A stretch of 64,000 nt of DNA from Rhodoferax sp. (GCF_030685025.1 NZ_JAUXWC010000105.1), one strand, 5' to 3'. Positions 23,689 through 43,219 are shown, counted from the first letter of the stretch. The notes: generated from the sequence alone by a model not told the origin. A program made the numbers and translations.

Positions 23689-23732
23689 GATTTGTGGACT
23701 CCCACACAGGCTTGGGGAATGGTTGAATCATA

Positions 23733-26709: not shown

Positions 26710-29295
26710 ATGTTGCAAGCCTACCGTGCCCATGTGGCTGAACGCGCCGCCCTCGGCATTCCCCCATTACCGCTGACTGCGAAACAGACAAGTGAACTGA
26801 TCGAATTACTCAAGGCCCCGCCTGCGGGCGAAGAGCAGGTTTTGGTGGAGTTGATCACCCATCGTGTGCCCGCCGGTGTGGACGACGCGGCCAAAGTCAA
26901 GGCATCCTACTTGGCTGCCGTGGCGCATGGAAGCGAGAAGTGCCTATTGCTCAGTCGCGAGAAGGCCACCGAATTGCTGGGTACCATGCTCGGGGGCTAC
27001 AACATCAGTCCGATGGTTGATTTGCTTGATGACGCGCTGGTGGGTAGCATTGCGGCCAATGGGCTGAAGAAGACTCTGTTGATATTCGATCAGTTTCATG
27101 ACGTCAAGGAAAAGGCTGACAAGGGCAACGCCAATGCCCGGGCCGTGCTGCAAAGCTGGGCCGACGCTGAGTGGTTCACCAGCCGGCCAGAGGTGCCGCA
27201 GAGCATTGCCGTCAGCATCTTCAAGGTGGCGGGCGAGATCAACACCGACGACCTGTCACCGGCGCCGGACGCTTGGAGCCGGCCCGACATCCCCTTGCAC
27301 GCGCTGGCCATGCACAAGAACGCGCGGCCGGGGCTGACGCCTGAAGAGGATGGCAAGCGCGGCCCGGTCAAGTTCATCGAGGACTTGCGCGCGCGCGGCA
27401 ATCTGGTGGCCTACGTGGGAGACGTCGTGGGAACCGGATCTAGCCGCAAGTCGGCGACCAACTCGGTGCTCTGGTTCACCGGCGAGGATATCCCGTTCGT
27501 CCCCAACAAGCGTTTTGGGGGCGTTTGTCTGGGCGGCAAGATCGCACCCATTTTCTATAACACCATGGAAGACTCGGGCGCCTTGCCGATTGAGCTCGAT
27601 GTCAGCCAGATGGCCATGGGCGACGTGGTCGAACTGCGTCCGTACGAGGGCAAGGCGCTCAAGGATGGCAAGGTCATCGCCGAGTTCAAGGTCAAGAGTG
27701 ACGTGTTGTTTGACGAGGTGCGTGCGGGTGGGCGCATTCCACTCATCATCGGTCGTGGCCTGACGGCCAAGGCACGCGAGGCGCTCGGCCTGCCGGCGTC
27801 GACCCTGTTCCGCCTGCCGGTCAACCCTGCCGATACCGGCAAGGGATTCACCCTCGCCCAGAAGATGGTCGGGCGTGCTTGTGGCTTGCCAGAGGGCAAG
27901 GGCGTGCGCCCGGGCACCTACTGCGAACCCAAGATGACCAGCGTCGGCTCGCAGGACACCACCGGGCCGATGACCCGCGATGAGCTCAAAGACCTCGCTT
28001 GCTTGGGCTTCAGCGCCGACCTCGTGATGCAATCGTTTTGCCATACGGCGGCTTACCCCAAGCCGGTCGATGTCAAGATGCACCATGAGTTGCCGGATTT
28101 CATCAGCACGCGCGGCGGTGTCAGTCTGCGCCCGGGCGACGGCATCATTCACAGTTGGCTCAATCGCATGCTGTTGCCGGACACCGTGGGCACCGGCGGC
28201 GATAGCCACACGCGCTTTCCGATCGGCATCAGTTTCCCGGCCGGCTCTGGCCTGGTGGCGTTTGGTGCGGCCACCGGCGTCATGCCGCTGGACATGCCCG
28301 AGAGCGTGCTGGTGCGCTTCAAAGGGCAGTTGCAGCCGGGCGTGACCCTGCGAGATCTGGTCAATGCCATTCCCTTGTATGCCATTCGGGCAGGCTTGTT
28401 GACGGTGTCCAAGCAGGGCAAGAAGAACATCTTCTCGGGGCGGATTCTGGAGATCGAGGGCCTGCCCGATCTGAAGGTTGAGCAAGCGTTCGAGTTGAGC
28501 GACGCGTCGGCGGAGCGTTCGGCGGCAGGTTGCACGGTGCACCTGGATAAGGCGCCCATCATGGAGTACATCAACAGCAACATCACCATGCTCAAGTGGA
28601 TGATTTCCACCGGGTATGCCGACGCGCGAACCATCGGGCGGCGCATCCAGGCGATGCAAGCCTGGCTGGCCGATCCCCAGTTGTTGAAGGCCGACGCGGA
28701 TGCCGAGTATGCGGCGGTGATCGACATTGATCTGGCCGATGTGCATGAGCCGATCGTGGCCTGCCCAAATGACCCCGACGATGTGAAGACACTGGGTGAT
28801 GTGGCCGGCGCCAAGATCGATGAGGTGTTCATTGGCAGTTGCATGACCAACATCGGTCACTTCCGCGCCGCGTCCAAGCTGTTGGAAGACAAGCGCGACA
28901 TTCCGGTCAAGTTGTGGATGGCGCCACCAACCAAAATGGATGCCAAGCAGCTCAGCGATGAGGGCCACTACGGTGTCTTGGGCGCGGCTGGCGCGCGCAT
29001 GGAAATGCCCGGCTGCAGCCTGTGCATGGGCAACCAGGCGCAGGTGAAGGAAGGCGCTACGGTGATGTCCACCAGCACGCGTAACTTCCCCAACCGCTTG
29101 GGCAAGAACAGCAATGTGTACCTCGGCAGCGCTGAGCTCGCGGCGATTTGCGCCAAGCTGGGCCGGATTCCGACCAAAGCGGAGTACATGACCGACATGG
29201 GTGTACTCACGGCGGCCAGCAGCAAGGTGTACCAATACTTGAACTTCGACCAGATCAAGGACTACACCGATCAGGCCGACAGGGTGACGGCCTGA
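26710..29295 (+). CDS. acnB: bifunctional aconitate hydratase 2 / 2-methylisocitrate dehydratase
   Basis: ATG at 26710 after AAGGAG. AcnB N-terminal HEAT-like domain (MLQAYRAHVAERAALGIPPLPL) and Fe-S ligand regions (GSCMTN, CSLCMGNQA). Confidence 0.95.
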   Translation: MLQAYRAHVAERAALGIPPLPLTAKQTSELIELLKAPPAGEEQVLVELITHRVPAGVDDAAKVKASYLAAVAHGSEKCLLLSREKATELLGTMLGGYNISPMVDLLDDALVGSIAANGLKKTLLIFDQFHDVKEKADKGNANARAVLQSWADAEWFTSRPEVPQSIAVSIFKVAGEINTDDLSPAPDAWSRPDIPLHALAMHKNARPGLTPEEDGKRGPVKFIEDLRARGNLVAYVGDVVGTGSSRKSATNSVLWFTGEDIPFVPNKRFGGVCLGGKIAPIFYNTMEDSGALPIELDVSQMAMGDVVELRPYEGKALKDGKVIAEFKVKSDVLFDEVRAGGRIPLIIGRGLTAKAREALGLPASTLFRLPVNPADTGKGFTLAQKMVGRACGLPEGKGVRPGTYCEPKMTSVGSQDTTGPMTRDELKDLACLGFSADLVMQSFCHTAAYPKPVDVKMHHELPDFISTRGGVSLRPGDGIIHSWLNRMLLPDTVGTGGDSHTRFPIGISFPAGSGLVAFGAATGVMPLDMPESVLVRFKGQLQPGVTLRDLVNAIPLYAIRAGLLTVSKQGKKNIFSGRILEIEGLPDLKVEQAFELSDASAERSAAGCTVHLDKAPIMEYINSNITMLKWMISTGYADARTIGRRIQAMQAWLADPQLLKADADAEYAAVIDIDLADVHEPIVACPNDPDDVKTLGDVAGAKIDEVFIGSCMTNIGHFRAASKLLEDKRDIPVKLWMAPPTKMDAKQLSDEGHYGVLGAAGARMEMPGCSLCMGNQAQVKEGATVMSTSTRNFPNRLGKNSNVYLGSAELAAICAKLGRIPTKAEYMTDMGVLTAASSKVYQYLNFDQIKDYTDQADRVTA

Positions 29296-29341
29296 TGCCA
29301 AACAGGCGGTGACGACCTCGGTCGCATCGCCAACCCGAAAA

Positions 29342-29377
29342 GCCCCTCGGTTCTGATTGAGGGGCCTTTCTGCTGTT
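29342..29377 (+). terminator. probable rho-independent terminator after acnB
   Basis: GCCCCTC / GAGGGGC stem with a 10-nt loop, followed by the T-rich CTTTCTGCTGTT. It lies about 47 nt after the acnB stop. Confidence 0.5.
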
Positions 29378-29555
29378 CGGGATTCCCCTGGCGCCTCTTG
29401 AGCACACTACTTGATAGGCCAATGGGTCATTTCGGACCAGGCGCACCGATCTACCTTCTTTTGCGTGGACCTGGGGCTGCCGGCGGCACCGGCCCGGTTA
29501 AACTTTGCGCAGTTCAAAAACCGTCATCGTCCTGACCCATTCCCATAAGCAAGCC

Positions 29556-29816
29556 ATGTTCTTTGGCAAGCTGTTGCCGCGTGAAGGCAATTTCTTCGAG
29601 ATGTTCAACCAGCATGCTGACCGCATCGTCGAGGCGGCACATGCTTTTGCCAAGCTGGTGGAGAACTACGCCGACCCGCACCTGCGCGACAAGTACAACC
29701 AGGAAGTGGACAACGCCGAGCGCGCCGCGGACAGGGTGACCCATGAGGTCAACAAAGCCATCCACATCACGTTCGGGCAATGCAGACAACTCAGGTCGCA
29801 CTGTGGGTGGTTGTGA
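29556..29816 (+). pseudogene. truncated DUF47 (PhoU-like Pit accessory protein) gene
   Basis: The sequence from MFFGKLLPREGNFFEMFNQHADRIVEAA to HEVNKAIHITF matches the first about 80 residues of the roughly 210-aa DUF47 family. The frame then runs out of frame straight into the pit start codon and stops 36 nt inside pit. Confidence 0.65.
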
Positions 29817-30790
29817 CGCTGGTGGCCTTGGCGCTGGCGTTTGACTTCATGAATGGTTTTCATGACGCCGCCAATTCAATTGCCACCGTCGTCTCCACCG
29901 GTGTGCTCAAGCCGGGTCAGGCGGTGCTGTTCGCCGCCGTTTTTAACTTTGCTGCGATATTCGTTTTTCAACTCACCGTCGCCGCCACCGTGGGAAAGGG
30001 GTTGGCGCAGCCCGGCGTGGTCGATGTCCATGTGGTTTTTGGCGCCCTGATTGGGGCCATCAGTTGGAATTTCATCACCTGGTACTACGGAATTCCCAGC
30101 AGTTCGTCACACGCCCTGATTGGCGGCATCGTCGGAGCCGTCATAGCCAAGGCGGGTGCCTCGGCGCTGATGTCTGCCAGTTTGATGAAGACCGTGGTCT
30201 TCATCTTGGTTTCGCCAACCTTGGGATTCTTGTTGGGTTCGCTCATGCTGATCGCCGTCTCCTGGGGGCTGCGGCGCAGCACACCCAGCCGTGTCGACCG
30301 GTGGTTTCGGCGCCTACAACTGGTGTCAGCCGGTGCCTACAGCCTGGGGCATGGTGGCAACGATGCACAAAAGACCATCGGTATTGTCTGGATGCTGTTG
30401 ATTGCGACCGGTTACACCGCCGCGGGGGACAAGGCGCCTCCGTACTGGGTGGTGGTGAGCTGTTACGCCGCAATTGCCTGCGGCACCATGTTTGGTGGCT
30501 GGCGAATTGTGAAGACCATGGGTCAACGCCTGACCAAGCTCAAGCCAGTGCACGGGTTTTGCGCCGAGACCGGTGGTGCGATCACGCTGTTCATGGCGGC
30601 CATACTGGGCATTCCGGTTTCCACCACGCACACCATCACTGGCGCGATCGTCGGCGTGGGAGCCACCCAGCGTGCCAGTGCCGTGCGTTGGGGCGTGGCG
30701 GGCAATATCGTCTGGGCATGGATATTCACGATTCCCGCCAGCGCCTTTGTCGCGGCGGTGGCGTACTGGGTCAGCCTGCAGTTATTCTGA
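29780..30790 (+). CDS. pitA: inorganic phosphate transporter, PiT family
   Basis: 336 aa, multi-TM, with the signature FDFMNGFHDAANSIATVVST and a second GNDAQKTIG repeat. Confidence 0.9.
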   Translation: MQTTQVALWVVVTLVALALAFDFMNGFHDAANSIATVVSTGVLKPGQAVLFAAVFNFAAIFVFQLTVAATVGKGLAQPGVVDVHVVFGALIGAISWNFITWYYGIPSSSSHALIGGIVGAVIAKAGASALMSASLMKTVVFILVSPTLGFLLGSLMLIAVSWGLRRSTPSRVDRWFRRLQLVSAGAYSLGHGGNDAQKTIGIVWMLLIATGYTAAGDKAPPYWVVVSCYAAIACGTMFGGWRIVKTMGQRLTKLKPVHGFCAETGGAITLFMAAILGIPVSTTHTITGAIVGVGATQRASAVRWGVAGNIVWAWIFTIPASAFVAAVAYWVSLQLF

Positions 30791-30814
30791 CAGTCGTGCT
30801 CGCAGTACCGTCGG

Positions 30815-31264
30815 TCACTGCGAAATCTTGCGGGCCTCCTCGATCTGGTGCTCAAAGTAGTGCTGGAAGCTGAACACGATGCTGCTGATCAGCACCGTCG
30901 AGCCGACCAACAGCGACAGCACCACCGCGCCGATCGTCAGCCAGTTCGTATGGCCCGAAGCATGATCGGGCGCTTCCTGCGGGTTGAAGCGAGTGTTCCA
31001 TGGCTGCGGTGCCATCAGGCCGTACACAATGGCGTTGATGGCGCAGCCCGCGACGGTGAAACCCAGCAGCGGGATGAGCAGCCAACTCAGCGCGTCGTCC
31101 AGCCCCAAGTCCCTCGCGCGTTGCACGCCATACAGTCCGAGCAGCGTGGGCAGTGGCAGTAACCAGCCCAATCGGTCCGTGAAACCGTACAGGTAGAAGC
31201 GGTGCAGTCCCAAGGGACCCGCGAGGAGGGCCAACCACGCGGCCAGGGTCTTGTTCTTTGCCAT
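30815..31264 (-). CDS. TM2 domain-containing membrane protein
   Basis: ATG at 31264 (MAKNKTLAAWLALLAGPLGLHRFYLYG). GxxGxHRFY is the TM2-domain hallmark. Confidence 0.65.
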   Translation of the reverse strand: MAKNKTLAAWLALLAGPLGLHRFYLYGFTDRLGWLLPLPTLLGLYGVQRARDLGLDDALSWLLIPLLGFTVAGCAINAIVYGLMAPQPWNTRFNPQEAPDHASGHTNWLTIGAVVLSLLVGSTVLISSIVFSFQHYFEHQIEEARKISQ

Positions 31265-31269
31265 TGGAT

Positions 31270-31794
31270 TCACTCGCATGCCGGGCGACTGTCGCCCGCG
31301 CCCAGGGCTTTGTCCATCAACACCACGTCGCGCCACTGGTTGAACTTCCAGCCGCAGGATTTGAGCACGCCGGCATGTGCAAAGCCGAGCGATTGGTGAA
31401 CCCGGATCGAGCCCAGGTTGGCCGAGTCCCCGATGACCGCAATGAGTTTGCGCACACCCGCTCGTTCGGCTTGCGCAGCCAGTTCAGCCAACAGCGCCCG
31501 CCCGCAACCACGACCCAGCGCGGAGGGCGCCATGTAGATTGAGTCCTCGGCTGAGAAGCGATAGGCCGGACGCGGCTTGAACCAGGTGCAGTAGGCATAA
31601 CCGATGACCTGATCACCTTCGCAGGCCACCAGGTACGGCAGGCCCTTGGCCAGCACATCGGCCCGTCGTGTGGCCATGTCGTCCTGGCTGGGCGGGTCAA
31701 GCTCAAAAGTGCCTGTTCCATGCAACACGTGGTGGGTGTAGATGGCCGTGATAGTTGGAAGATCGCTGGCTTGGCTGGGTCGAATGATAGGCAT
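31270..31794 (-). CDS. GNAT family N-acetyltransferase (phosphinothricin acetyltransferase-like)
   Basis: 174 aa. Has YTHHVLHGTGTFELDPP and the acetyl-CoA pocket RGCGRALL. Confidence 0.8.
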   Translation of the reverse strand: MPIIRPSQASDLPTITAIYTHHVLHGTGTFELDPPSQDDMATRRADVLAKGLPYLVACEGDQVIGYAYCTWFKPRPAYRFSAEDSIYMAPSALGRGCGRALLAELAAQAERAGVRKLIAVIGDSANLGSIRVHQSLGFAHAGVLKSCGWKFNQWRDVVLMDKALGAGDSRPACE

Positions 31795-31807
31795 AAATAT
31801 TGAAAAG

Positions 31808-31825
31808 GCTATAATAGCGGGCTAT
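31808..31825 (+). promoter_or_regulatory. candidate rpsP promoter core (-10 TATAAT plus GC-rich discriminator)
   Basis: GCTATAATAGCGGGCTAT lies about 90 nt upstream of rpsP. An almost identical block precedes rplS. I found no convincing -35. Confidence 0.3.
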
Positions 31826-31914
31826 TCAGTGTGTCACTGGCCGGGTGGTCAGTTGCGTGTCTCAACTCTGAATTCAAAGGTGACTGCAACATGTCGCCAC
31901 CCAAAGGATAAATC

Positions 31915-32166
31915 ATGGTCGTCATTCGACTCGCACGCGGCGGTGCTAAAGCCCGCCCGTTTTTCAACATTGTTGTGGCTGACAAGCGTACCCGTCGCGA
32001 CGGGCGCTTCATTGAGCGCATCGGGTTTTACAACCCCATCGCCACTGCCAACGAGGAAAGCATTCGCATTGCTCAGGATCGCCTGACTTACTGGAAGAGC
32101 GTTGGCGCCCAAGCGTCACCGACAGTCGAACGCCTGATCGACCAAGCTGCCAAGAAAGCAGCTTGA
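31915..32166 (+). CDS. rpsP: 30S ribosomal protein S16
   Basis: 83 aa, [23 protein letters not shown]. Confidence 0.95.
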
Positions 32167-32173
32167 TCCTGAA

Positions 32174-32740
32174 GTGATCTTGCCCGGCCTTGAGGCTGCC
32201 GAATTGCCGGCAGACGCGATCGAAGTCGGGCGTATCGCCGATGCCTGGGGCATCAAGGGCTGGTTCAAGGTCTTGCCCCATAGCGCCGATCCCGAGGCGC
32301 TTTTTTCATCCAAACGCTGGTTCTTGATGCCCGCCGAGCGCGGTGCCAAAACATTTTCCGGTGTCGCTGGACTTTCCGTCATGGAAGCCAAGCACCATTC
32401 GGACACCGTGGTGGCCAGTGCACTTGGCGTCACGGATCGCGGCGCCGCCGAGGCCTTGCGTGGTGCCCGCATCTTCATTTCGCGCGCCAGCTTTCCCACT
32501 GCCGATAAAGACGAGTACTACTGGGTCGATCTGATCGGACTCAACGTCATCAATCGTGAGGGCGTGGCCCTGGGAACCGTGAGTGAGCTGCTCGCCACCG
32601 GCGCGCAGACGGTGTTGGTGATCGACTATCTTGAGGATGGCAAGACCATGCAACGCATGGTTCCCTTCGTGGCGCACTATGTCGACGATGTGGATCTGGC
32701 CAAACGATGCATCACGGTGGACTGGCAGCCCGACTACTGA
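32174..32740 (+). CDS. rimM: ribosome maturation factor RimM
   Basis: 188 aa with a GTG start. Has VGRIADAWGIKGWFKV and a PRC-barrel C-terminus. Lies between rpsP and trmD. Confidence 0.9.
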   Translation: MILPGLEAAELPADAIEVGRIADAWGIKGWFKVLPHSADPEALFSSKRWFLMPAERGAKTFSGVAGLSVMEAKHHSDTVVASALGVTDRGAAEALRGARIFISRASFPTADKDEYYWVDLIGLNVINREGVALGTVSELLATGAQTVLVIDYLEDGKTMQRMVPFVAHYVDDVDLAKRCITVDWQPDY

Positions 32741-32751
32741 GCGACTGACCC

Positions 32752-33495
32752 ATGCGTTTTGACGTCGTCACGCTGTTCCCCGAGTTGTTTGCCCCGCTCT
32801 TGTCCGCTGGCATCACCCGGCGGGCCTTTGAGAGCGGCCAGGTTGAGGTCAAACTCAATAATCCTCGCGATCATGCGCCGGGCAACTACCGGCGCGTCGA
32901 TGACCGCCCCTTTGGTGGCGGCCCCGGCATGGTGATGATGGCCGAACCGTTGGCTGCCTGTTTGCGCGAGATCGAGACCCAGCGTGGGGTCATGCCGGCC
33001 GTGCTGCTGTTCTCTCCGATCGGGCGCCGTCTTGACCACAGCACGGTGCAGCGCTGGGCCGACAGTGAGGGGGCCATTTTGGTGTGTGGTCGCTACGAGG
33101 GCATTGATCAGCGCTTCATTGATGCGCACGTCGATGAGCAGATTAGTCTGGGCGACTTTGTTCTGTCCGGCGGAGAAATCGCGGCCATGGCACTGCTCGA
33201 TGCGGTCGCGCGGCTGCAACCGGGCGTACTCAATGACTCGGACAGTCACGTGCTGGACAGCTTCAACCCGGCCTTGGACGGCTTGCTGGATTGTCCACAC
33301 TACACCCGGTCCGAGCGGTGGAGTGGTGTGCAGGTCCCGGAGGTCTTGCTGTCTGGCCACCATCTGCAGATTGAGCGCTGGCGGCGCGAACAGCGATTGC
33401 ATCTGACAGCGCAACATCGTCCGGATTTGATCGTCCAAGCTCGCGCGGCGGGGCGATTGTCGGCGCAAGACGAGACGTTTCTATCCGGTCTGTGA
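32752..33495 (+). CDS. trmD: tRNA (guanine37-N1)-methyltransferase
   Basis: 247 aa. MRFDVVTLFPELF and GRYEGIDQR motifs. Confidence 0.95.
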   Translation: MRFDVVTLFPELFAPLLSAGITRRAFESGQVEVKLNNPRDHAPGNYRRVDDRPFGGGPGMVMMAEPLAACLREIETQRGVMPAVLLFSPIGRRLDHSTVQRWADSEGAILVCGRYEGIDQRFIDAHVDEQISLGDFVLSGGEIAAMALLDAVARLQPGVLNDSDSHVLDSFNPALDGLLDCPHYTRSERWSGVQVPEVLLSGHHLQIERWRREQRLHLTAQHRPDLIVQARAAGRLSAQDETFLSGL

Positions 33496-33659: not shown

Positions 33660-34013
33660 ATGAATCTTTTGCAGACTCTTGAGCAAGAAGAAATTGCTCG
33701 CCTCGGGAAAACCATTCCCGATTTCGCACCCGGCGATACGGTCGTGGTCAGCGTTAACGTCGTTGAAGGTAGCCGCAAACGCGTGCAGGCTTACGAAGGC
33801 GTGGTGATTGCCAAGCGCAATCGCGGCCTCAACAGTGGCTTTATCGTGCGCAAGATCTCCAGCGGTGAAGGCGTGGAGCGCACCTTCCAGACCTACAGCC
33901 CCTTGATCGCCAGCATCGAGGTCAAGCGCCGCGGCGACGTTCGCCGCGCCAAGCTGTACTACCTGCGCCAGCGCAGCGGCAAGTCGGCGCGCATCAAGGA
34001 AAAGCTGGGCTGA
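33660..34013 (+). CDS. rplS: 50S ribosomal protein L19
   Basis: 117 aa, [12 protein letters not shown]...[13 protein letters not shown]...RRAKLYYLR. Confidence 0.95.
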
Positions 34014-34117
34014 CCTTCGGTCAGCGCGCGGCTGCGCCGCGCTTCGCGCACCAGCGCGAAACCAGCTTTCGACGCGACCCGGCGCAGCCGGCCGCGTCCA
34101 AAAGCTGGCCCTCCACG

Positions 34118-34816
34118 TTGATACCCGTTTCCCGCATCCTGAACCCGCAAGCGGTGCCTGTAGCCGGCACCGACGCCCATCTGCCGCCCGTGCCCACGCC
34201 GGCGTTGACGGCGGATGCGCTGCGCGAGCGCTTCCGTCAGCGCGAGCCGTGGCTACCCGAGATTCCCGGCGACGGCCGGCTGTTCACCGACCGCGAGCCG
34301 GCGCACGCCGCCGTGCTGGTGGCGCTGGTGCAGCGCGGCGACGGGCTGCACGTGCTGCTGACGCGCCGCACCGAGCACCTGCGAGAGCACGCCGGGCAAG
34401 TCAGCTTCCCCGGCGGCCGCAGCGAGGCCGGCGATGCCGACCCCGCAGCCACGGCGCTGCGCGAGACCGCGGAAGAGGTCGGCCTGCCGCGCGACAGCAT
34501 CGAAGTCATCGGCCAGATGCCGGCCTACACGACCATCACGCAGTTCGTCGTCACGCCCGTCGTGGCACTGGTGCAGCCGCCGTTCGAACTGGCGCTGGAC
34601 AGCTTCGAGGTTGCCGAGGCCTTCGAGGTGCCGCTGCCGTTCCTGATGAACCCGACCCACCACCGGCGCCATGTCTTCACCTTCGAAGGCGGGCAGCGCC
34701 AGTTCCTGTCGATGCCCTGGCAGGGCGCGGGCGCCGATGGCGTGTCGCGCGAGTACTTCATCTGGGGCGCAACGGCCGCGATGTTGAGGAACCTGTACCG
34801 CTTCCTCGCCAAGTGA
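34118..34816 (+). CDS. NUDIX hydrolase, CoA pyrophosphatase type
   Basis: NUDIX box GQVSFPGGRSEAGDADPAATALRETAEEVGL. The ORF opens at TTG 34118 and has no ATG in the N-terminal region, so the true start is uncertain. Confidence 0.8.
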   Translation: MIPVSRILNPQAVPVAGTDAHLPPVPTPALTADALRERFRQREPWLPEIPGDGRLFTDREPAHAAVLVALVQRGDGLHVLLTRRTEHLREHAGQVSFPGGRSEAGDADPAATALRETAEEVGLPRDSIEVIGQMPAYTTITQFVVTPVVALVQPPFELALDSFEVAEAFEVPLPFLMNPTHHRRHVFTFEGGQRQFLSMPWQGAGADGVSREYFIWGATAAMLRNLYRFLAK

Positions 34817-34835
34817 GGCTCTATCATCGCTGCGA

Positions 34836-35822
34836 ATGAGTTTCTTCGCAGTCATGTTCGCGCTGCTGATCGAGCAGCTCAAGCCGCTTCCGCGTGACAA
34901 CTGGATCCACGAGACGCTGATGTCGTGGGTGCGCTGGACGGGCCGGAACTTCGACGCCGGGCGGCCGCACCATACCTGGGTCGTCTGGGGTGTTTCGGTG
35001 GGCGTGCCGGTGCTGGCGGTGGCAGCGCTGTACCTGGTGATCGCGCACTTCAGCCTGCTGCTGGCGCTGGCTTTCGACGTCGCGCTGCTGTACCTGACGC
35101 TGGGCTTCCGCCAGTTCAGCCACTACTTCACCGACATCCGCGAGGCGCTGGACCGCGGCGACGAGAACGAGGCGCGCCGGCTGCTGGCCGAGTGGCGGCA
35201 CCTCGACGCCAGCGAGTTGCCGCGCACCGAAGTGCTGCGCCATGTCATCGAACATGCACTGCTGGCCGCGCACCGGCATGTCTTCGGCGTCTTCTTCTGG
35301 TTTGTCGTCTTCTCGGCCCTGGGCCTGGGGCCCGTCGGGGCGGTGCTCTACCGCATGGCGGAGTTCTCCAGCCGCTACTGGGGCTACCGCCTGCGCGCGA
35401 TGGACGCACCGGGCAACGACGAGCTGCTGGCGCTGTCGCGACGGCTGTTCGCGCTCATCGACCACGTGCCGGCGCGGCTGACGGCGTTCGGCTTTGCCGT
35501 GGTCGGCAATTTCGAGGAGGCCATCGGCAGCTGGCGGCGCGACGCCGGGCTGTGGCAACACCCCAACGAAGGCATCATCCTCGCCGCCGCCGCCGGCGCC
35601 GTGGGCGTGCAACTGGGCGGCGCCGCGGCGCCGGGCGTCACGCCCGACCGCTCGAAGACCTTCACCGCCGGTGGCCCCGGCATCGCCGACGCCGCCGGCT
35701 CCACGGCCGGTGATCCGGCGCAGCCCGGCCACCTGCACAGCGTGGTCGGCCTGGTGTGGCGCTCGGTGGTGCTGTGGATGCTGCTGGTGGCGCTGCTGAC
35801 GCTGGCCAACGTGCTCGGTTGA
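34836..35822 (+). CDS. CobD/CbiB (AmpE-like) family membrane protein
   Basis: 328 aa, ATG start, multi-TM. The N-terminus MSFFAVMFALLIEQLKPLP is typical of this family. Confidence 0.7.
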   Translation: MSFFAVMFALLIEQLKPLPRDNWIHETLMSWVRWTGRNFDAGRPHHTWVVWGVSVGVPVLAVAALYLVIAHFSLLLALAFDVALLYLTLGFRQFSHYFTDIREALDRGDENEARRLLAEWRHLDASELPRTEVLRHVIEHALLAAHRHVFGVFFWFVVFSALGLGPVGAVLYRMAEFSSRYWGYRLRAMDAPGNDELLALSRRLFALIDHVPARLTAFGFAVVGNFEEAIGSWRRDAGLWQHPNEGIILAAAAGAVGVQLGGAAAPGVTPDRSKTFTAGGPGIADAAGSTAGDPAQPGHLHSVVGLVWRSVVLWMLLVALLTLANVLG

Positions 35823-35837
35823 GTCAGCCCGGGCCAC

Positions 35838-36785
35838 CTAGTAGCGGCTGCGCGACAGCTCCTCGAACAGCATCTCGTAGATGCGCCGCCGCGACGCGCT
35901 GATGTCGCCGCGCTCGACGGCTGCGCGCACGCCGCAGCCGGGCTCGTGGCGGTGGCTGCAGTTGTGGAAGCGGCAGTGCCCCAGCGCCGCCGCGAAGTCC
36001 GGCATCAAGGTGGCCAGCCGTTCGGGTGCGACGTGGCGCAGGCCGAATTCCTGGAATCCCGGGCTGTCGATCAGCGCGCCACGGCGCCCATCGTCGTGCT
36101 TTGGCTCGAGCCAGTACCAGGTGCTGGTGGTGGTGGTGTGGCGGCCGGCGGCGAGCGCCTTCGAGATCTCGCCGACCTGGGCCGCGGCCGCCGGCACCAG
36201 CAGGTTGATGAGCGTGCTCTTGCCCATGCCGCTGGGCCCCAGCACCAGCGTCGTGCGGCCGGCCAGGTGCGGCAGCAGCCGCGCGGTGGACCCGGCCGGG
36301 TCGGCCTTCAGCGCCAGTTCGATGACTTCCACACCCATCGCCACGTAGGGCGCCAGCCGCTCGCGCGCCGCGGCGGCGGCCGGCAAGTCGATCTTGTTCA
36401 GGCCGATGAGCGCCGGGATGCCGGCTTCCTGCGCCGCCACCAGCGCCCGCGTGAGCTGCGATTCGCTGAACACCGGCTCGCCGGCCACCAGTATCAGCAG
36501 CTGGTCGAGGTTGGCGGCGAAGGACTTGGTGCGCCATTCGTCCTGCCGGAACAGGAGGTTGCGGCGCGGCTCGATGTGCTCGACGACGCCGCCGTCGCCG
36601 GTGGGCTGCCAGCGCACCTGGTCGCCGACCACCAGTTCACTCTTCTTGCCGCGCGGATGGCACAGCACGCGCGTGCCGTCCGGTGTTTCCACGACCACAT
36701 GGCGACCGTGCGCCGCCACCACCAGCCCGAGGTCGAGCGCGGCGGGCACATCCGCGGTGGCGCCCCGCGCGCCGCGCGCGGTCAA
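35838..36785 (-). CDS. rsgA: ribosome small subunit-dependent GTPase A
   Basis: This is the C-terminal 315 codons of the 720-aa read-through ORF. It has an OB fold (GLVVAAHGRHVVVETPDG), circularly permuted GTPase motifs (LIGLNKIDL, GPSGMGKSTLIN) and a Zn knuckle (CRFHNCSHRHEPGC). The proposed TTG start at 36785 overlaps the phhB stop; the start is uncertain. Confidence 0.85.
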   Translation of the reverse strand: MTARGARGATADVPAALDLGLVVAAHGRHVVVETPDGTRVLCHPRGKKSELVVGDQVRWQPTGDGGVVEHIEPRRNLLFRQDEWRTKSFAANLDQLLILVAGEPVFSESQLTRALVAAQEAGIPALIGLNKIDLPAAAAARERLAPYVAMGVEVIELALKADPAGSTARLLPHLAGRTTLVLGPSGMGKSTLINLLVPAAAAQVGEISKALAAGRHTTTTSTWYWLEPKHDDGRRGALIDSPGFQEFGLRHVAPERLATLMPDFAAALGHCRFHNCSHRHEPGCGVRAAVERGDISASRRRIYEMLFEELSRSRY

Positions 36786-37105
36786 GGCAGCAGCGCGTCC
36801 ACCTTGGCGGCGCAGATGAAGTCGTTGACCGAGATGCCGCCCACCGAGTGCGTGTTGAAGCGCACCGTGCAGCGGTTGTAGGACACCACCAGCTCCGGGT
36901 GGTGGTCCTCGACATGAGCCACCCGGGCCACGGCGTTCACGAAGGCCATGGTGTGGTGGTAGTCGGCGAAGTCGAAGTTTTTCTGGATTGCACCGTCGGC
37001 CAGCGCCCAGCCGGGTGTGCGGGCCAGCTGCTGCGTGACTTCGGCCGTGGACATCGGGGGCTGGCCTTCGAGCGGCCGGCAGCGCTGGGTGGCGAGCTCG
37101 GTCAT
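36782..37105 (-). CDS. phhB: 4a-hydroxytetrahydrobiopterin dehydratase
   Basis: 107 aa with the DHHPEL motif (VEDHHPELVVSYNRCTVRFNTH). Confidence 0.9.
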   Translation of the reverse strand: MTELATQRCRPLEGQPPMSTAEVTQQLARTPGWALADGAIQKNFDFADYHHTMAFVNAVARVAHVEDHHPELVVSYNRCTVRFNTHSVGGISVNDFICAAKVDALLP

Positions 37106-37108
37106 GGT

Positions 37109-38377
37109 TCAGGCCGGCGCGGGCAAGGCCGCCAGGCGTTCGGACGCCGGCGGGTGCGAATAGTAGAAGCGCACGTAGACCGGGTCGGGCGTCAGCGTGG
37201 AGGCGTTGTCCTCGTGCAGCTTGAGCAGGGCGCGCGCGAGGTCGCGGCCGTCGGCCTGCGCGCATGCATACGCGTCGGCCTGGAACTCGTGGCGGCGCGA
37301 GACCTGCGCCATCAACGGCGAGACGAAGAAGACGAACGGCGGCAACGCCAGCATGAACAGCAACAGCGCCAGCGCATCGTTGGGCGCGGCCAAGTTGGGT
37401 GCCACACCGAGGCCGGCATAGAAGCCGCTCTGGCCGGCCAGCCAGCCCAGCAGCGCCAGCCCGAGCAGGCTGAAGCCGAAGATGCCCGCCATGCGCTGCA
37501 GCACATGCTTGTGCTTGAAGTGGCCGAGTTCGTGCGCCAGCACCGCTTCCACCTCGCCGGGCGTCAGCCGCTGCAGCAGGGTGTCGAAGAAGACCACGCG
37601 TTTGGCCGCTCCCAGGCCGGTGAAGTAGGCGTTGGCGTGTGCCGAGCGCTTGCTGCCGTCCATCACGAACAGGCCCTTGGCGGCAAAGCCGCAGCGCTGC
37701 ATCAGTGCCTGTACGCGGCTGCGCAGCGCGTCGTCGGCCAGCGGCTCGAACTTGTTGAAGATCGGCGCGATGACGGTCGGGTACAGCACCAGCAGAGCGA
37801 GGTTGAAAGCCACCCAGACGGCCCAGGCCCACAGCCACCACATGCCGCCCGATGCCGCCATGATCCACAGCATGAGCGCGGCCAGCGGCAGGCCGATGAG
37901 TGCACCGACCAAGGTGCCCTTGAGCAGGTCGGCGAGCCACATCTTCAGCGTCATGCGGTTGAAGCCGAAACGCTGCTCGATGCGGAAGGTGCCGTACCAC
38001 TCCAGCGGCAGGTCGAGCGCGCCGCCGATGGCGGCAAATGCGGTCAGCAGCGCGAGTTGATACGCCATGTTGCCCCAGCCCGGCTGCAGCGCGTCGCGCA
38101 ACAGCGTGTTCAGCGCGTCCAGCCCGCCCAGCAGCGTCCAGCCCAGCAGCACCGCGCCGCCGACGGCGGTGGCCAGCAGCCCGAAGCGGCCCTTGGCCAG
38201 CGTGTAGTCGGCGGCCTTGCGGTGCGCCTGCAGCGTCACGGTGCCGGCAAAGGCGGCGGGTACCTGGTCGCGGTGCGCCGCCACGTGGCGCATCTGCCGC
38301 GTGGCCAGCCAGAACTTGACGGCCAGCGACAGCAGCAAGGCCGCCGCGAAGGCCAGCGTGAACGATGAAGGCTCCAT
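37109..38377 (-). CDS. M48 family (Ste24/HtpX-like) zinc metallopeptidase
   Basis: ATG at 38377 (MEPSSFTLAF...). Multi-TM N-terminal half, then HELGHFKHKH (HExxH). Confidence 0.85.
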   Translation of the reverse strand: MEPSSFTLAFAAALLLSLAVKFWLATRQMRHVAAHRDQVPAAFAGTVTLQAHRKAADYTLAKGRFGLLATAVGGAVLLGWTLLGGLDALNTLLRDALQPGWGNMAYQLALLTAFAAIGGALDLPLEWYGTFRIEQRFGFNRMTLKMWLADLLKGTLVGALIGLPLAALMLWIMAASGGMWWLWAWAVWVAFNLALLVLYPTVIAPIFNKFEPLADDALRSRVQALMQRCGFAAKGLFVMDGSKRSAHANAYFTGLGAAKRVVFFDTLLQRLTPGEVEAVLAHELGHFKHKHVLQRMAGIFGFSLLGLALLGWLAGQSGFYAGLGVAPNLAAPNDALALLLFMLALPPFVFFVSPLMAQVSRRHEFQADAYACAQADGRDLARALLKLHEDNASTLTPDPVYVRFYYSHPPASERLAALPAPA

Positions 38378-38433
38378 GAGTGGCAAGTGTAGGCTTGGGC
38401 CAGAATCAGCCGCTTCGACACGGACAAGGCACC

Positions 38434-38994
38434 ATGAGCGACATCGGTTTGACCCCCAGCGAGAACAACCTGGTCTGGATCGACCTGGAAATGACCGGCC
38501 TGCTGCCGGACAGTGACCGCATCATCGAGATCGCCGTGGTGGTGACCGACCCGCAGGTCACGCAGCGCATCGAGGGCCCGGTGTTCGCCGTGCACCAGAG
38601 CGACGCCGTGCTCGACGCCATGGACGCCTGGAACCGCGGCACCCATGGCAAGAGCGGACTGACGGCGCGCGTGCGCGCCTCCACCATCGACGAGGCCGCT
38701 GCCCAGGCGCAGGTGATCGACTTCCTGAAGCAGTACGTGTCCAAGGGCAAGAGCCCCATGTGCGGCAACAGCATCTGCCAGGACCGCCGTTTCATGGCCC
38801 GCTACATGCCCGAGCTGGAAGCCTTCTTCCACTACCGCAATGTCGACGTCAGCACGCTCAAGGAGCTGGCGCGGCGCTGGAAGCCGGCGGTGCTGGACGG
38901 CTTCAAGAAGGCGCAGGCACACACCGCCCTGGCCGACATCCACGAGTCGATCGACGAGATGCTGCACTATCGCCAGCACCTGCTGGCGGTCTGA
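38434..38994 (+). CDS. orn: oligoribonuclease
   Basis: ATG at 38434. [16 protein letters not shown] motif, 186 aa. Confidence 0.95.
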
Positions 38995-39054
38995 CGGGGC
39001 GGCGCCGGACGCCGACGTCACGGCAGCGTCACGGCGCATTCGTACACTCACACC

Positions 39055-41154
39055 ATGACCGACGACTCGCGGGCCGAAGCGCCTGACTCCACGGGCGCCG
39101 CCGTGGGCGCCGGCGTGCTGCCCACAACGCTGCCGCTGCTCGACCGCGAGCGCTCGATCCTGCAGTTCAACCGCCGCGTGCTGGCCCAGGCCCGGCGCGC
39201 CGATGTGCCGCTGCTCGAGCGGCTGCGCTACATCACCATCGTCAGCTCCAACCTCGACGAGTTCTTCGAGGTGCGCGTGGCCGACATCATCGAGGCCACG
39301 CGGCAGCCCGGCTCGGGCGTCACCCGCCACGACCTGGCCTCGGTGGCCAGGGCCGCGCACGAGCTCATCGACGAGCAGTACGCCCTCTTCAACGATGCCG
39401 TGATGCCGGCGCTGCAGCACGTGGGCATCGTGGTGCTCAACCACGCCGAGCGCAACGCGGCGCAGCGCAAGTGGGTCCAGCGCTTCTTCGAAACCCAGGT
39501 GCGGCCGCTGCTGGTGCCGGTGAGCCTGGACCCCAGTCACCCGTTTCCTCAGGTGGCCAACAAGTCGCTCAACTTCATCGCCAGGCTGGGCGGGCGCGAC
39601 GCCTTCGGGCGCGACAACCAGATTGCCATCGTCAAGGTGCCGCGCGTGTTGCCGCGCGTGATCCGCCTGCCCGACGAGTTGTGCCCCAGGCAGCAGGGTT
39701 TCGTGTTGCTGACCAGCGTCATGCGCGCCCATCTGGGCGAACTCTTCCCCGGGCGCGAGGTGGTGTCGTTCTCGCAGTTCCGCGTCACGCGCGACTCCGA
39801 TCTCGACGTCGAGGCCGACGACGTCGTCAACCTGCGTCAGGCCATGCGCAGCGGCCTGACGACGCGCAACTTCGGGCTGGCGATCCGGCTCGAAGTCGTC
39901 AGCACCTGCCCGCCCGAGCTGTACAGCTTCCTGCTCGAGCAGTTCTCGCTGCCCGAGGTCGCGCTGTACAAGGTCAACGGGCCGGTCAACCTGGTGCGGC
40001 TGAACCAGCTCATCGACCAGGCCGACGGCGACGCGCTGCACTTCCCGCACTGGGAGCCGCGCTGGCCCGACGCGCAGTTGCCGCGCACACGCTCGATCTT
40101 CGAGCGCCTGCGTGCAGGCGACGTGCTGCTGCACCACCCCTTCGAAAGCTTCGAGCCGGTGGTGCAGTTCCTGCGCGAGGCCGTGCACGACCCCGACGTG
40201 CTGGCCATCAAGCAGACCATCTACCGCACCGGTGCGCAAAGCGAGCTGATGGACCTGCTGATCGAGGCCGCGCGCCGCGGCAAGGAAGTGCTGGCGGTGG
40301 TGGAGCTGAAGGCGCGCTTCGACGAAGAGGCCAACATCAATTGGGCCGAGCGGCTGGAAGCCGTCGGCGCGCAGGTGGTCTATGGCATTGTCGGCCTCAA
40401 GACGCACGGCAAGATGCTGCTCGTGACGCGCCGCGAGAGGGGCCGCCTGCGCCGCTACGCCCACCTGTCCACGGGCAACTACAACCCGCGCACGGCGCGG
40501 CTGTACACCGACATGGGTTGCCTCACTGCCGACCCCGGCCTGACGGCCGATGCCGACGTGCTGTTCCTGCAACTGGCCAGCCAGACGCGCAGCAAGGCGC
40601 CGCGCTACCTGCTGACGGCGCCGTTCATGATGCACCGGCGCATGCTGCGACACATCGGCCAGGTGGCGGTGGCGGCACGGGCCGGGCGGCCGGCGCGCAT
40701 CGTCGCCAAGTTCAATGCGCTGACCGACCCTGGGTTGATGCAGGCCCTGGCCGAGGCCAGCCAGGCCGGCGCCAGCATCGACCTCATCGTGCGCGCCGCC
40801 TGCATGCTGCCGCCGGGCTTGCCGGGGCGCACCGAGAACATCCGCGTGCGCTCGGTGGTCGGGCGTTTTCTCGAGCACACACGCATCCTCTACTTCCGCT
40901 GGGGCGAGGGCGACGACGACGAGGTGCTCTACCTCAGCAGCGCCGACTGGATGAGCCGCAACATGTTCCGCCGCATCGAGGTCGCCTGGCCGGTGCGCGA
41001 CCGCGCGCTGCGCCAGCGCGTCATCGACGAAGGCCTGGTGCCGTATCTGCACGACGAGCGCGACGCCTGGCTGCTGGACAGCGAAGGGCGCTACAGGCGC
41101 GTCGCCGAAACCGGTGTCAGCGCGCAGCAGGCGCTGATGCAGCGCTACTCCTGA
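39055..41154 (+). CDS. ppk: polyphosphate kinase 1
   Basis: 699 aa with the PPK1 pattern (LDRERSILQFNRRVL, NLDEFFEVRV, LKTHGKMLLV autophosphorylated His region). Confidence 0.95.
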   Translation: MTDDSRAEAPDSTGAAVGAGVLPTTLPLLDRERSILQFNRRVLAQARRADVPLLERLRYITIVSSNLDEFFEVRVADIIEATRQPGSGVTRHDLASVARAAHELIDEQYALFNDAVMPALQHVGIVVLNHAERNAAQRKWVQRFFETQVRPLLVPVSLDPSHPFPQVANKSLNFIARLGGRDAFGRDNQIAIVKVPRVLPRVIRLPDELCPRQQGFVLLTSVMRAHLGELFPGREVVSFSQFRVTRDSDLDVEADDVVNLRQAMRSGLTTRNFGLAIRLEVVSTCPPELYSFLLEQFSLPEVALYKVNGPVNLVRLNQLIDQADGDALHFPHWEPRWPDAQLPRTRSIFERLRAGDVLLHHPFESFEPVVQFLREAVHDPDVLAIKQTIYRTGAQSELMDLLIEAARRGKEVLAVVELKARFDEEANINWAERLEAVGAQVVYGIVGLKTHGKMLLVTRRERGRLRRYAHLSTGNYNPRTARLYTDMGCLTADPGLTADADVLFLQLASQTRSKAPRYLLTAPFMMHRRMLRHIGQVAVAARAGRPARIVAKFNALTDPGLMQALAEASQAGASIDLIVRAACMLPPGLPGRTENIRVRSVVGRFLEHTRILYFRWGEGDDDEVLYLSSADWMSRNMFRRIEVAWPVRDRALRQRVIDEGLVPYLHDERDAWLLDSEGRYRRVAETGVSAQQALMQRYS

Positions 41155-41170
41155 CGCGCCGGCGGCAACG

Positions 41171-41632
41171 ATGGACCTCATCCTCTGGCGCCACGCCGAA
41201 GCCCTGGAAATGCGCGAGGTGCAAGACGACCTCGACCGCGCGCTCACCCCCAAGGGCGAGCGCCAGGCGCAGCGCATGGCCGCCTGGCTGAACCGGCAGC
41301 TGCCCGCCAGCACGCGCGTGCTGGTCAGCCCGGCGCGGCGTGCGCAGCAGACGGCGGCGGCGCTGGACCGCAAGTTCAAGACCGTGCCGGCACTGGCGCC
41401 CGACGCCGATGTGGCTGCCCTGCTGCACACCGTGCGCTGGCCCGACGCCCGCGAGCCGGTGCTGGTGGTCGGCCACCAGCCGACGCTGGGCCTGGCCGCG
41501 GCTTACCTGCTGTCGGGCCAGCCGCAGGCCTGGGCCGTGCGCAAGGGCGGCGTGTGGTGGCTGCGCGGGCGTGAACGCGAGGGCGCGCTGCAGGTCGTCC
41601 TTCACGCCGTGGTGGGACCGGAATTCCTGTAG
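41171..41632 (+). CDS. sixA: SixA-type phosphohistidine phosphatase (histidine phosphatase superfamily)
   Basis: 153 aa. LILWRHAEA is the RHG-type catalytic motif. Confidence 0.8.
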   Translation: MDLILWRHAEALEMREVQDDLDRALTPKGERQAQRMAAWLNRQLPASTRVLVSPARRAQQTAAALDRKFKTVPALAPDADVAALLHTVRWPDAREPVLVVGHQPTLGLAAAYLLSGQPQAWAVRKGGVWWLRGREREGALQVVLHAVVGPEFL

Positions 41633-41648
41633 CGAAGCCCGGCGGCCC

Positions 41649-43154
41649 CTAGACCTCCGCCAGCACCAGCCGCAGTGACCCGTTACGCGCCCAGGCGGCG
41701 GTCTCTTCCTGCAGCAGGAACAGCGTGCGCGGATTGGCTTCGGCCCAGGTGCTGCTGTGGCTCAGCACGGCGTCGCGGCCGCGGGCACGCAAGGTCAGCG
41801 CCTTGGGGTCGGCCAAGCCGCGTGCATGGCACTTGATCACCGCCAGTCGCAGGCACAGCACCTGCCAGGCGAAGGCGGTGCTGGACAGCTGGGCCTCGAT
41901 CTTGCGCAGCCCGCCGCGCTGGCCCAGCACCAGGTCGCCGATGCGGCGCTGCTGGCTCTGCGAAAAACCCGCCGCGTCGACGTTGGCCAGCAGGTAGGCG
42001 CTGTGGCGGTGGTGGTCGTGGTGCGACACCATCAGGCCCAGCTCGTGCAGCGCGCAGGCCCAGGCCAGCTCGCGCCGCGGTTCGGGGTCGGTGTCGGGCA
42101 TCGCGGTGTCGAACAGTGCCAGCGCCACCGCGGACACGCGCGCGGCCTGCGCGGTGTCGACGTCGAAGCGCTGCTGAAGGTCGGCCACCGAGGCGTCGCG
42201 CATGTCTCCGGGCAACTGGCGCTGCAGCGCCAGCAGGCGTTCGTGGAGGTCGATGATGACACCCTGGCGCAGGGCGCCCTTGGCCGGCCAGAGGGCGCGG
42301 ATGTCGAAGTGTGCCGACAGCGTGTACAGGATGGCCAGCCCGCCCGGCAGCACGGCACGGCGTTCGGGTTTCAGCCCGGGCAATTCGATGCGGTCGACGT
42401 GTCCCGCCTCCAGGCAGCGCGCGATGCACCAGCGCAGCCCCGCCGGCGTGATGCGGCCGTCGGTCACGCCCGAGGCCTGCAGCAGTTGCGACACCGCACC
42501 CGCGGTGCCCGACGAGCCCAGCGCCTGCCCCCAGTGGTCGGGGGCGAAGGACTGCAGGCCTTCCTCGAATTCGGCGCCGGCAGCCACCTGCGCGGCGCGG
42601 AAGCCGTCGCGCGTGATGCGGCCGTCCTCGAAGTAGCGCATCGACAGGCTGACGCAGCCGACGTGAAAGGACTCCGCCACGGTCGGCGTGCGGCCCTGGC
42701 CCAGGATCAGCTCGGTGGATCTGCCGCCGATGTCGACCACCAGCCGCGGCTCGCTGCCGGGCTGCATGTGCGCCACGCCGGCGTAGATAAGCCGTGCCTC
42801 CTCGCGGCCGGAGATGACCTCGATCGGGTAGCCCAGCGCCTCCTGGGCGCGCAGCAGGAAGGCGTTGCGGTTGCGCGCCTCGCGCAGTGTCTGCGTCGCC
42901 ACGGCGCGCACCTGGGCCGGCTGGAAGCCGGCCAGGCGGGCGGCAAACCGCCGCAGGCAGGCCAGGCCGCGCTCGGCCGCTTCTTCGGTGAGCATGCCGT
43001 GGGCGTCGAGCCCGGCGCCCAGGCGCACGGTGTCCTTGAGGTAGTCGATGCGCCTGTAGCGGCTCTGCGGCAGCTGCCCGATTTCGAGCCGGAAGCTGTT
43101 CGAGCCCATGTCGATGGCCGCCAGCGGGCTGCCCGGGTTCAGGCGTATTTCCAT
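41649..43154 (-). CDS. ppx: exopolyphosphatase (Ppx/GppA family)
   Basis: ATG at 43154 (MEIRLNPGSPLAAIDMGSNSFRLEI). ASKHA-fold N-terminus and an HD-like C-terminus. Confidence 0.9.
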   Translation of the reverse strand: MEIRLNPGSPLAAIDMGSNSFRLEIGQLPQSRYRRIDYLKDTVRLGAGLDAHGMLTEEAAERGLACLRRFAARLAGFQPAQVRAVATQTLREARNRNAFLLRAQEALGYPIEVISGREEARLIYAGVAHMQPGSEPRLVVDIGGRSTELILGQGRTPTVAESFHVGCVSLSMRYFEDGRITRDGFRAAQVAAGAEFEEGLQSFAPDHWGQALGSSGTAGAVSQLLQASGVTDGRITPAGLRWCIARCLEAGHVDRIELPGLKPERRAVLPGGLAILYTLSAHFDIRALWPAKGALRQGVIIDLHERLLALQRQLPGDMRDASVADLQQRFDVDTAQAARVSAVALALFDTAMPDTDPEPRRELAWACALHELGLMVSHHDHHRHSAYLLANVDAAGFSQSQQRRIGDLVLGQRGGLRKIEAQLSSTAFAWQVLCLRLAVIKCHARGLADPKALTLRARGRDAVLSHSSTWAEANPRTLFLLQEETAAWARNGSLRLVLAEV

Positions 43155-43219
43155 ACACGGATCGTACCCGGCGCGCCTGCTCCAGAATGGCAGGCTTGCC
43201 ACCTCAGAAGGAGAGACCC

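Follow-up and report, generated by a model that had tools for sequence, protein, structure and literature searches.

An abrupt compositional step within rplS of a metagenome-assembled "Rhodoferax sp." contig almost certainly marks a reciprocal assembly chimera

Does the DNA on either side of rplS in a contig filed as "Rhodoferax sp." belong to one organism? The window analysed here is a stretch of 64,000 nucleotides (NZ_JAUXWC010000105.1, assembly GCF_030685025.1) in which an initial annotation, made from the sequence alone, had reported an abrupt and sustained step in GC content and codon usage inside or just after this conserved gene. It had attributed the step either to a misassembly or bin chimera of two related Comamonadaceae or to a very large homologous recombination tract, and it proposed compositional profiles (sliding GC, GC3 and tetranucleotides) and the affinity of the proteins on each side as checks.

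The step itself was borne out. A single maximum-likelihood change-point in the 64-kb window fell at position 33925 (2-lnL support interval 33821-34029; log-likelihood gain 250), with a GC content of 0.609 to its left versus 0.693 to its right, where roughly 60 and 70 percent had been judged by eye. In 2-kb sliding windows, GC remained at ~0.60-0.62 until 34 kb and at ~0.69-0.72 from there on. Using a crude gene call, per-gene GC3 was ~0.69-0.83 (about 0.75) on the left and ~0.86-0.94 (about 0.91) on the right, and GC1 rose too, from ~0.63 to ~0.72, indicating that amino-acid composition shifts as well, beyond synonymous sites. The description of the right side as using almost exclusively G/C-ending codons was accurate except within one repeat-protein gene, where GC3 drops to 0.77 at 56.1-58.1 kb. 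Within rplS itself, GC3 was 0.62 in codons 1-66 and 0.90 in the remaining codons, and the G+C counts made by hand for two 60-nt lines proved exact on recount (28/60 at 33661-33720 and 44/60 at 34201-34260).

As a control, we compared the GC content of the 5 kb to the right of rplS with that of the 5 kb to its left at 46 natural rplS loci of named Burkholderiales genomes, taken from a genome-collection scan with rplS. The difference (right minus left) had a mean of 0.007, a standard deviation of 0.019 and a maximum of 0.054 at these loci; in the window it was 0.096. The GC step is therefore real and far beyond normal variation. A separate GC dip in the left half, at 19-24 kb, corresponds to the sdh and gltA region and is ordinary.

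We additionally assembled a panel of 80 natural rplS loci with 10-kb flanks from the genome-collection scan using rplS, in which no locus was identical to the rplS of the window (best 95-96%). Searching the panel by tblastn with the window's flanking proteins sorted the loci into two clades. For loci of clade A (Rhodoferax, Acidovorax, Polaromonas and relatives), matches were 63-75% with the left genes but 47-55% with those on the right; for loci of clade B (Roseateles, Paucibacter, Ideonella, Rhizobacter and two uncultured lineages), they were 55-59% with the left genes but 64-80% with those on the right. All natural loci were coherent, and the window alone was of clade A on its left side and of clade B on its right side. 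With the two source genomes denoted parent A and parent B, the features of the window are as follows.

1-33842: parent A segment, Rhodoferax-like Comamonadaceae; lysS ... leuB ... gltA-sdh ... acnB-PhoU(truncated)-PHO4-TM2-GNAT-rpsP-rimM-trmD and the 5' 61 codons of rplS
32752-33495, plus strand: trmD, 247 aa, clade-A type (Pfam PF01746); the last complete gene of parent A (clade-B trmD encodes 250-252 aa)
33660-34013, plus strand: hybrid rplS, encoding L19 of 117 aa (MDP2368325.1 / WP_413896528.1; Pfam PF01245, E = 1.5e-46)
33843-33880, plus strand: crossover word ATCGTGCGCAAGATCTCCAGCGGTGAAGGCGTGGAGCG, an exact 38 nt common to both parents; the putative 'chimeric node'
33881-64000: parent B segment, Rubrivivax-like Sphaerotilaceae; rplS 3' end, NUDIX, CobD-like, rsgA, pterin-4a dehydratase, M48 peptidase, orn, ppk, sixA, ppx, DLH, ZIP, Usp ... 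dxs ... PEP-CTERM repeat protein ... flhDC
34118-34816, plus strand: NUDIX / CoA pyrophosphatase, 232 aa, clade-B type (Pfam PF00293); the first complete gene of parent B
34836-35822, plus strand: CobD/CbiB-family protein, 328 aa, clade-B type (Pfam PF03186)

The labels that the initial annotation had given to trmD, rplS, the NUDIX gene, the CobD-like gene, rsgA, orn, ppk and dxs agree with Pfam and orthologue mapping. On the left, the trmD product was 94% identical to a protein (P0001) on an ENA contig (L081) and 90% identical to one on an 853-kb NCBI contig (L083). On the right, the closest relatives of the CobD-like protein were 96-98% identical, the named ones being "Rubrivivax sp." MAGs (L084 and L085); the exact NUDIX protein was found on the Logan contig SRR13727517_132893, and its orthologue on L085 was 88% identical. 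At the nucleotide level, sliding identity to the clade-A contig L081 was 0.92-0.99 up to ~33.85 kb and ~0.5 (about 0.55) beyond, while identity to the clade-B contig L085 was ~0.6 on the left and 0.90-0.96 on the right. The left segment was about 80% identical to L083, and the right segment was 90.5-91.1% identical to L085 and L089 over 33675-45836. Sites that distinguish the two clades gave 31 A states in a row followed by 38 B states, with a single switch.

Gene order followed the same division. Left of the join it is that of clade A (acnB-PhoU-PHO4-TM2-GNAT-rpsP-rimM-trmD), and to the right it is that of clade B (NUDIX-CobD-rsgA-pterin-4a-M48-orn-ppk-sixA-ppx-DLH-ZIP-Usp); in clade A, a DEAD helicase and a GGDEF protein natively come after orn. 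Both parents share the order rpsP-rimM-trmD-rplS-NUDIX-cobD; the gene order across the join looks natural, and the join lies at a homologous site in a conserved gene, as had been noted from the sequence. Tetranucleotide frequencies correlated at r = 0.97-0.98 inside each half and at 0.87-0.93 across the halves; the left half correlated at 0.98-0.99 with clade A and at 0.90 with clade B, whereas r between the right half and clade B was 0.994. In a scan with fourth-order Markov models trained on independent relatives, 34/34 left 1-kb windows were A-like and the right windows were B-like save at 56-59 kb. Similarity and synteny stayed of clade-B type up to 45.8 kb, as far as the relatives permit comparison, and composition was B-like out to 64 kb save at 56-59 kb, a region lying mostly inside one repeat-protein gene.

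The GC, GC3 and tetranucleotide profiles thus all split the window at rplS, and its proteins are closest to Rhodoferax-like relatives on the left and to Rubrivivax-like relatives on the right. On the combined evidence of similarity, gene order and composition, the two sides of the breakpoint come from different genomes. They are not two related Comamonadaceae, as had been supposed: NCBI taxonomy places Rhodoferax in the Comamonadaceae and Rubrivivax in the Sphaerotilaceae.

The proteins of the window correspond to consecutive GenBank entries, MDP2368295-MDP2368354 (RefSeq WP_4138965xx), on one 88,375-bp contig labelled "Rhodoferax sp.", within which the join is seamless, with no N. Mates in the 90% clusters that carry a name are, for the left proteins, mostly MAGs of "Rhodoferax sp." and, for the right ones, MAGs of "Rubrivivax sp." or "Betaproteobacteria bacterium". 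The clade-A clusters of NUDIX, CobD and RsgA include MDP1647391-393, whose label reads "MAG: ... [Rubrivivax sp.]" and whose source is a 52,198-bp contig, JAUXVE010000028.1, of the "Rubrivivax sp." MAG GCA_030680415.1. This reciprocal contig (L099) has a clade-B left flank (S20-MurJ-Hda-HAD-PolyA polymerase-HPPK-rpsP-rimM-trmD, the last of 252 aa), then a 123-aa rplS, and a clade-A right flank (NUDIX-CobD (325 aa)-RsgA-pterin-4a-M48-orn-DEAD helicase-GGDEF). In the interval where the window changes from A to B states, this contig changes from B to A, and its GC step, 0.713 to 0.622, mirrors that of the window. Identity to L081 was 93% for the right arm of L099 and 91% for the left arm of the window; identity to L089 was 90% for the left arm of L099 and 91% for the right arm of the window. 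These levels are consistent with the four arms representing one A genome and one B genome.

The junction could be placed at 33843-33880, corresponding to codons 62-74 of the 117-codon rplS, where discriminating sites at 33842 and 33881 flank a 38-mer that is identical in the window and L099 and forms their longest identical run. The initial annotation had put the junction at 33850-34120; it lies at the left edge of that interval and slightly to the left of the compositional change-point. We rebuilt the parents by un-swapping the arms, parent A from the left of the window and the right of L099, and parent B from the left of L099 and the right of the window. The same 38-mer is the longest exact word common to the rebuilt parents (45.8 kb and 39.1 kb), the runner-up being 23 nt. 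The breakpoint therefore sits in sequence that is exactly common to both genomes.

Clade-A L19 is 123 aa long and clade-B L19 117 aa. The L19 of the window has the clade-B length of 117 aa: its residues 1-84 equal those of a clade-A L19, and residues 85-117 carry clade-B states (S85, Q104 and the short tail 'KLG*'). Among about 15 billion proteins, this hybrid as deposited was found in one record only, MDP2368325.1, and the 123-aa hybrid of L099, as deposited, likewise exists as a single record, MDP1647390.1. Un-swapping restores proteins that occur elsewhere. The A-type L19 (123 aa; 5' part from the window, 3' part from L099) is P0364, present on 32 contigs from NCBI, JGI, Logan and ENA, and the B-type L19 (117 aa; 5' part from L099, 3' part from the window) is MDZ7590734.1, from an independent Rubrivivax MAG, where it lies on a 58-kb contig together with CobD (MDZ7590736), ppk (741) and SixA (742). 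Native A and B contexts are thus present on many independent contigs, and each hybrid L19 is confined to a single record.

In the Logan re-assembly of run SRR13727517, one contig (L087) matched window positions 29019-32269 at 100% (A-left), another (L086) matched 33944-36536 at 100% (B-right), and a third (L100) matched L099 at 9091-11140, also at 100% (A-right). Three of the four arms are therefore present as separate short contigs of this run, and the fourth, B-left, was seen only in L099, where it is continuous with A-right; through that continuity all four arms can be traced to one read set. The 100% matches indicate that both organisms were present in one sample. L086 and L100 both start within the 3' end of rplS and neither reaches left over the junction, in a re-assembly whose contigs generally measure just 2-3 kb. 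For a sister species, a Logan contig assembled from a different run (L098) breaks in the 3' region of rplS as well. The rplS core is a recurrent branch point, and this pattern is supportive, though not decisive, of a wrong join there.

We conclude that the window is almost certainly part of a metagenome-assembled contig that is an inter-genus assembly chimera of Rhodoferax-like and Rubrivivax-like DNA. According to this explanation, two co-occurring Burkholderiales populations with the same local gene order, parent A with a GC content of about 0.61 and parent B of about 0.70, share the exact 38-nt word in the conserved rplS core, and the assembler would have joined the paths wrongly at this word to yield two reciprocal chimeric contigs. 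A-left plus B-right would have given the window, binned as Rhodoferax, and B-left plus A-right would have given JAUXVE010000028.1, binned as Rubrivivax. The initial suspicion of a misassembly or bin chimera is thus supported as regards a contig-level assembly chimera; a binning error does not fit a seamless join in one contig. Both MAGs match Logan contigs of SRR13727517 at 100% and probably derive from one assembly, and the error would have occurred at the graph-resolution step of a short-read assembler, the wrong pairing of paths being deduced from its products. Against an assembly error it can be said that a repeat of 38 nt is, as a rule, short enough to be bridged by reads of 100-150 nt. 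Our guess is that the assembler failed either through low coverage at large k or through bulge collapse of the 83%-identical rplS region.

Errors of this kind are well documented. A mis-partitioned de Bruijn 'chimeric node' is a known error class (PMC8171044), which the present case matches, and interspecies translocations, in the terminology of MetaQUAST, count among the extensive misassemblies (PMC10174551); about 7% of the contigs of a real metagenome are estimated to be misassembled (PMC10174551). Chimeric contigs of Salmonella and E. coli, which have similar genomes, have been found in a mock community (PMC8172020). As in an interspecies translocation or chimeric node, there is a shared word, here the 38 nt of rplS, and the four arms were recovered, mispaired in two GenBank contigs. 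Unlike in the usual inter-genome chimeras, the partners in the window are not close relatives but come from different families and differ by about 9 GC points, and both reciprocal products passed binning and deposition, the window's MAG at least having reached RefSeq (WP_ accessions). Documented reciprocal pairs of this kind are seldom pointed out.

Could the join nevertheless exist in a living cell? A genuine large homologous replacement, by which a Rhodoferax-like cell gained at least 30 kb of Rubrivivax-like chromosome through one crossover in the conserved rplS core, would explain why the join lies at a homologous position of a conserved gene and why the hybrid ORF is intact. Both properties are shared with core-gene homologous recombination, and an identical stretch of 38 nt is in principle long enough for a recombination crossover. 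We nonetheless consider such a replacement very unlikely. An exactly reciprocal product is present in a second MAG matching SRR13727517, and because recombination with incoming DNA leaves no reciprocal chromosome in a separate population, the reciprocal contig counts against it. Furthermore, the flanking genes are merely about 55-65% identical at the nucleotide level, and no second junction was seen: similarity and gene order never revert to type A through 45.8 kb, and neither, outside 56-59 kb, does composition through 64 kb. The putative donor segment shows no amelioration and retains the donor's gene order, and the genes that lie downstream in the recipient (DEAD helicase, GGDEF) turn up on the contig that carries the donor's left flank. 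Little weight can be given to the finding that a junction 80-mer had 0 matches in JGI metagenomes, since a 47-mer from the parent-B spacer likewise had 0 there. With the reciprocal product, the singleton hybrid L19s and the native un-swapped L19s taken into account, the very large recombination tract that had initially been offered as an alternative is effectively excluded. A variant of this idea, to which we give an equally slim chance, holds that 30 kb or more of Rubrivivax-like core chromosome is really present in a Rhodoferax-like lineage, joined through the 38-nt microhomology in rplS, and that the reciprocal contig is an artefact that arose by coincidence or else another real recombinant. 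If true, it would represent a viable inter-family exchange of core genome, including a functional hybrid ribosomal protein L19.

Two further explanations were considered. Hybrid molecules produced by template switching in the rplS stretch common to both parents, while the library was being amplified by PCR or otherwise, and then assembled faithfully, would be compatible with the observation of both reciprocal joins, since PCR-mediated recombination happens at shared stretches and can give both reciprocal products. Such molecules would, however, be a small minority of the fragments at this locus and would not be expected to displace the native paths in both contigs, and a k-mer graph predicts that the join falls exactly where it does, in the single longest shared word. 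We regard an in-vitro origin as very improbable; in the contigs it would look the same as graph mis-resolution, and it, too, would make the feature an artefact. Next to no probability attaches to natural compositional heterogeneity or a genomic island in one genome, or to a pure binning error. So large a change in GC can indicate an island, and the window does share with acquired islands an abrupt and sustained shift in GC and codon usage; a bin chimera was, moreover, among the possibilities raised at the outset. The differing phylogenetic affinity of the two sides already refutes these readings. Unlike an island, the right half is made up of core housekeeping genes, arranged as they natively are in another family and genus, with 90-96% nucleotide identity to Rubrivivax-like contigs, and there is no tRNA gene within the 64-kb window and no integrase among the genes labelled in it (part of the ORFs scanned). 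We rejected a genomic island because of these core genes in native clade-B order and the lack of a tRNA gene, and an error of binning only because both parts lie in one contig with no N.

The reciprocal assembly chimera makes the step biologically unimportant, as an artefact of a well-known class, but it bears on the records. Window positions 33881-64000 should be attributed to the Rubrivivax-like organism, in agreement with the initial suggestion that the right-hand block needs re-attribution, and L099 from the 38-mer onward to the Rhodoferax-like organism. GenBank, RefSeq and UniRef list as "Rhodoferax sp." 30 kb or more of a Rubrivivax-like genome, with ppk/ppx, dxs, flhDC and a PEP-CTERM surface protein among its genes (WP_413896534.1 and WP_413896554.1 are examples), and at least 17 kb of a Rhodoferax-like genome is filed as "Rubrivivax sp." in GCA_030680415.1. 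Two artefact L19 proteins without a natural counterpart have entered the databases, one under MDP2368325.1 / WP_413896528.1 (RefSeq) and one under MDP1647390.1 (GenBank). It would be wrong to use the right half for conclusions about polyphosphate metabolism, motility regulation or horizontal gene transfer in the Rhodoferax MAG. Tools that rely on single-copy markers would probably miss either MAG at the rplS locus, since the segments that changed places are orthologous and the number of markers stays the same. As a clean and fully reconstructable reciprocal path swap, the pair could be used to check chimera detectors, as a positive control.

Two minor observations concern single genes, one in each half. 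The repeat-protein gene in the right half (54132-58088, minus strand; 1318 aa) encodes a PEP-CTERM protein with beta repeats and contains a second step in GC3, from 0.77 in codons 1-665 to 0.93 in later codons. The change-point lies at about window position 56093 with a log-likelihood ratio of 38, compared with a null 99th percentile of 5.2 and values of at most 8.5 in control genes. The N-terminus of the protein resembles an autotransporter passenger, with residues 12 to about 430 up to 71% identical to autotransporters of roughly 830-940 aa, the named ones being mostly alphaproteobacterial; its body, residues 419-1313, is of the choice-of-anchor-D / PEP-CTERM type. The same architecture occurs in an independent JGI protein (P0445), indicating that the fusion is natural. 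A second A/B junction at 56-59 kb was considered and set aside, the domain architecture there being natural; the GC3 step could reflect a mosaic gene or a second, small misassembly in the repeat. In the left half, about 440 nt are missing from the PhoU_div gene, of clade-A type and situated upstream of PHO4, so that residues 1-73 alone remain. An independent Logan contig repeats this truncation at 100%, indicating that it is real in the population.

A mirror image of the window's chimeric junction was found in a second contig, L099, which likewise encodes a hybrid L19 (MDP1647390.1).

Locus 8792-9163 and rightwards: reciprocal chimeric contig L099 (GCA_030680415.1, JAUXVE010000028.1), from a 'Rubrivivax sp.' MAG.

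Rightwards from the 38-mer in rplS, the exact word common to both parents, L099 is Rhodoferax-like; the locus holds at least 12 kb of this sequence and the record approximately 17 kb. In addition, two runs yielded three independent Logan contigs (L086 and L100 from SRR13727517, L098 from the other) that begin in the 3' end of rplS, with the NUDIX gene 139-180 nt downstream of their starts. Since all three start at this end of the gene, the conserved L19 core looks like a recurrent branch point of the k-mer graph in Burkholderiales-rich communities.

On the Rhodoferax-like side of the window, a shortened gene was identified.

29556-29779: truncated gene of the PhoU_div (PitR-like) type; the phosphate transporter gene PHO4 lies downstream.

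Compared to L081 and L083, contigs from clade-A relatives, this gene has lost approximately 440 nt and retains residues 1-73 out of 215. The same deletion is present at a 100% match in Logan contig L088 (SRR13727517), indicating that the truncation is a genuine feature of the Rhodoferax-like population. The left half also displays a dip in GC content to 0.56-0.58 at 19000-24000, an interval that contains succinate dehydrogenase genes (Pfam confirmed sdhA and the cytochrome b subunit) and that is adjoined by genes for citrate synthase and a GntR regulator. The Markov scan, using fourth-order models trained on relatives, assigned the dip to clade A, and it represents ordinary core metabolism.

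Two loci were examined in the Rubrivivax-like segment, the second of which lies at its right end.

54132-58088, minus strand: gene for a PEP-CTERM 'choice-of-anchor D' beta-repeat protein (1318 aa, MDP2368348.1).
62783-63773: the flagellar master regulator genes flhD and flhC.

Despite their position in this segment, flhD and flhC carry the RefSeq label Rhodoferax sp., and FlhC (WP_413896554.1) is a singleton in its 90% cluster. MDP2368348.1 is likewise a cluster singleton, and GC3 rises abruptly within its gene from 0.77 (codons 1-665) to 0.93 (codons 666-1318), with the step placed at approximately 56093 (LLR 38, compared to a null 99th percentile of 5.2). Clade-B-like sequence flanks the gene on either side. 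The gene could be a mosaic encoding a surface protein, or the step could mark a second, small misassembly within a repeat. The protein itself combines an autotransporter-passenger-like N-terminus with a choice-of-anchor-D/PEP-CTERM body, and an autotransporter beta-barrel is absent from its 1318 residues. The N-terminus (aa 12 to ~430) shares 57-71% identity with autotransporters of roughly 830-940 aa, the named ones being mostly alphaproteobacterial, while the body (aa ~419-1313) shares 58-62% identity with the C-terminal halves of proteins ~2000 aa long, including one in a Rubrivivax sp. MAG. The same architecture was found in an independent JGI protein, P0445, which is 65% identical over aa 22-1086.
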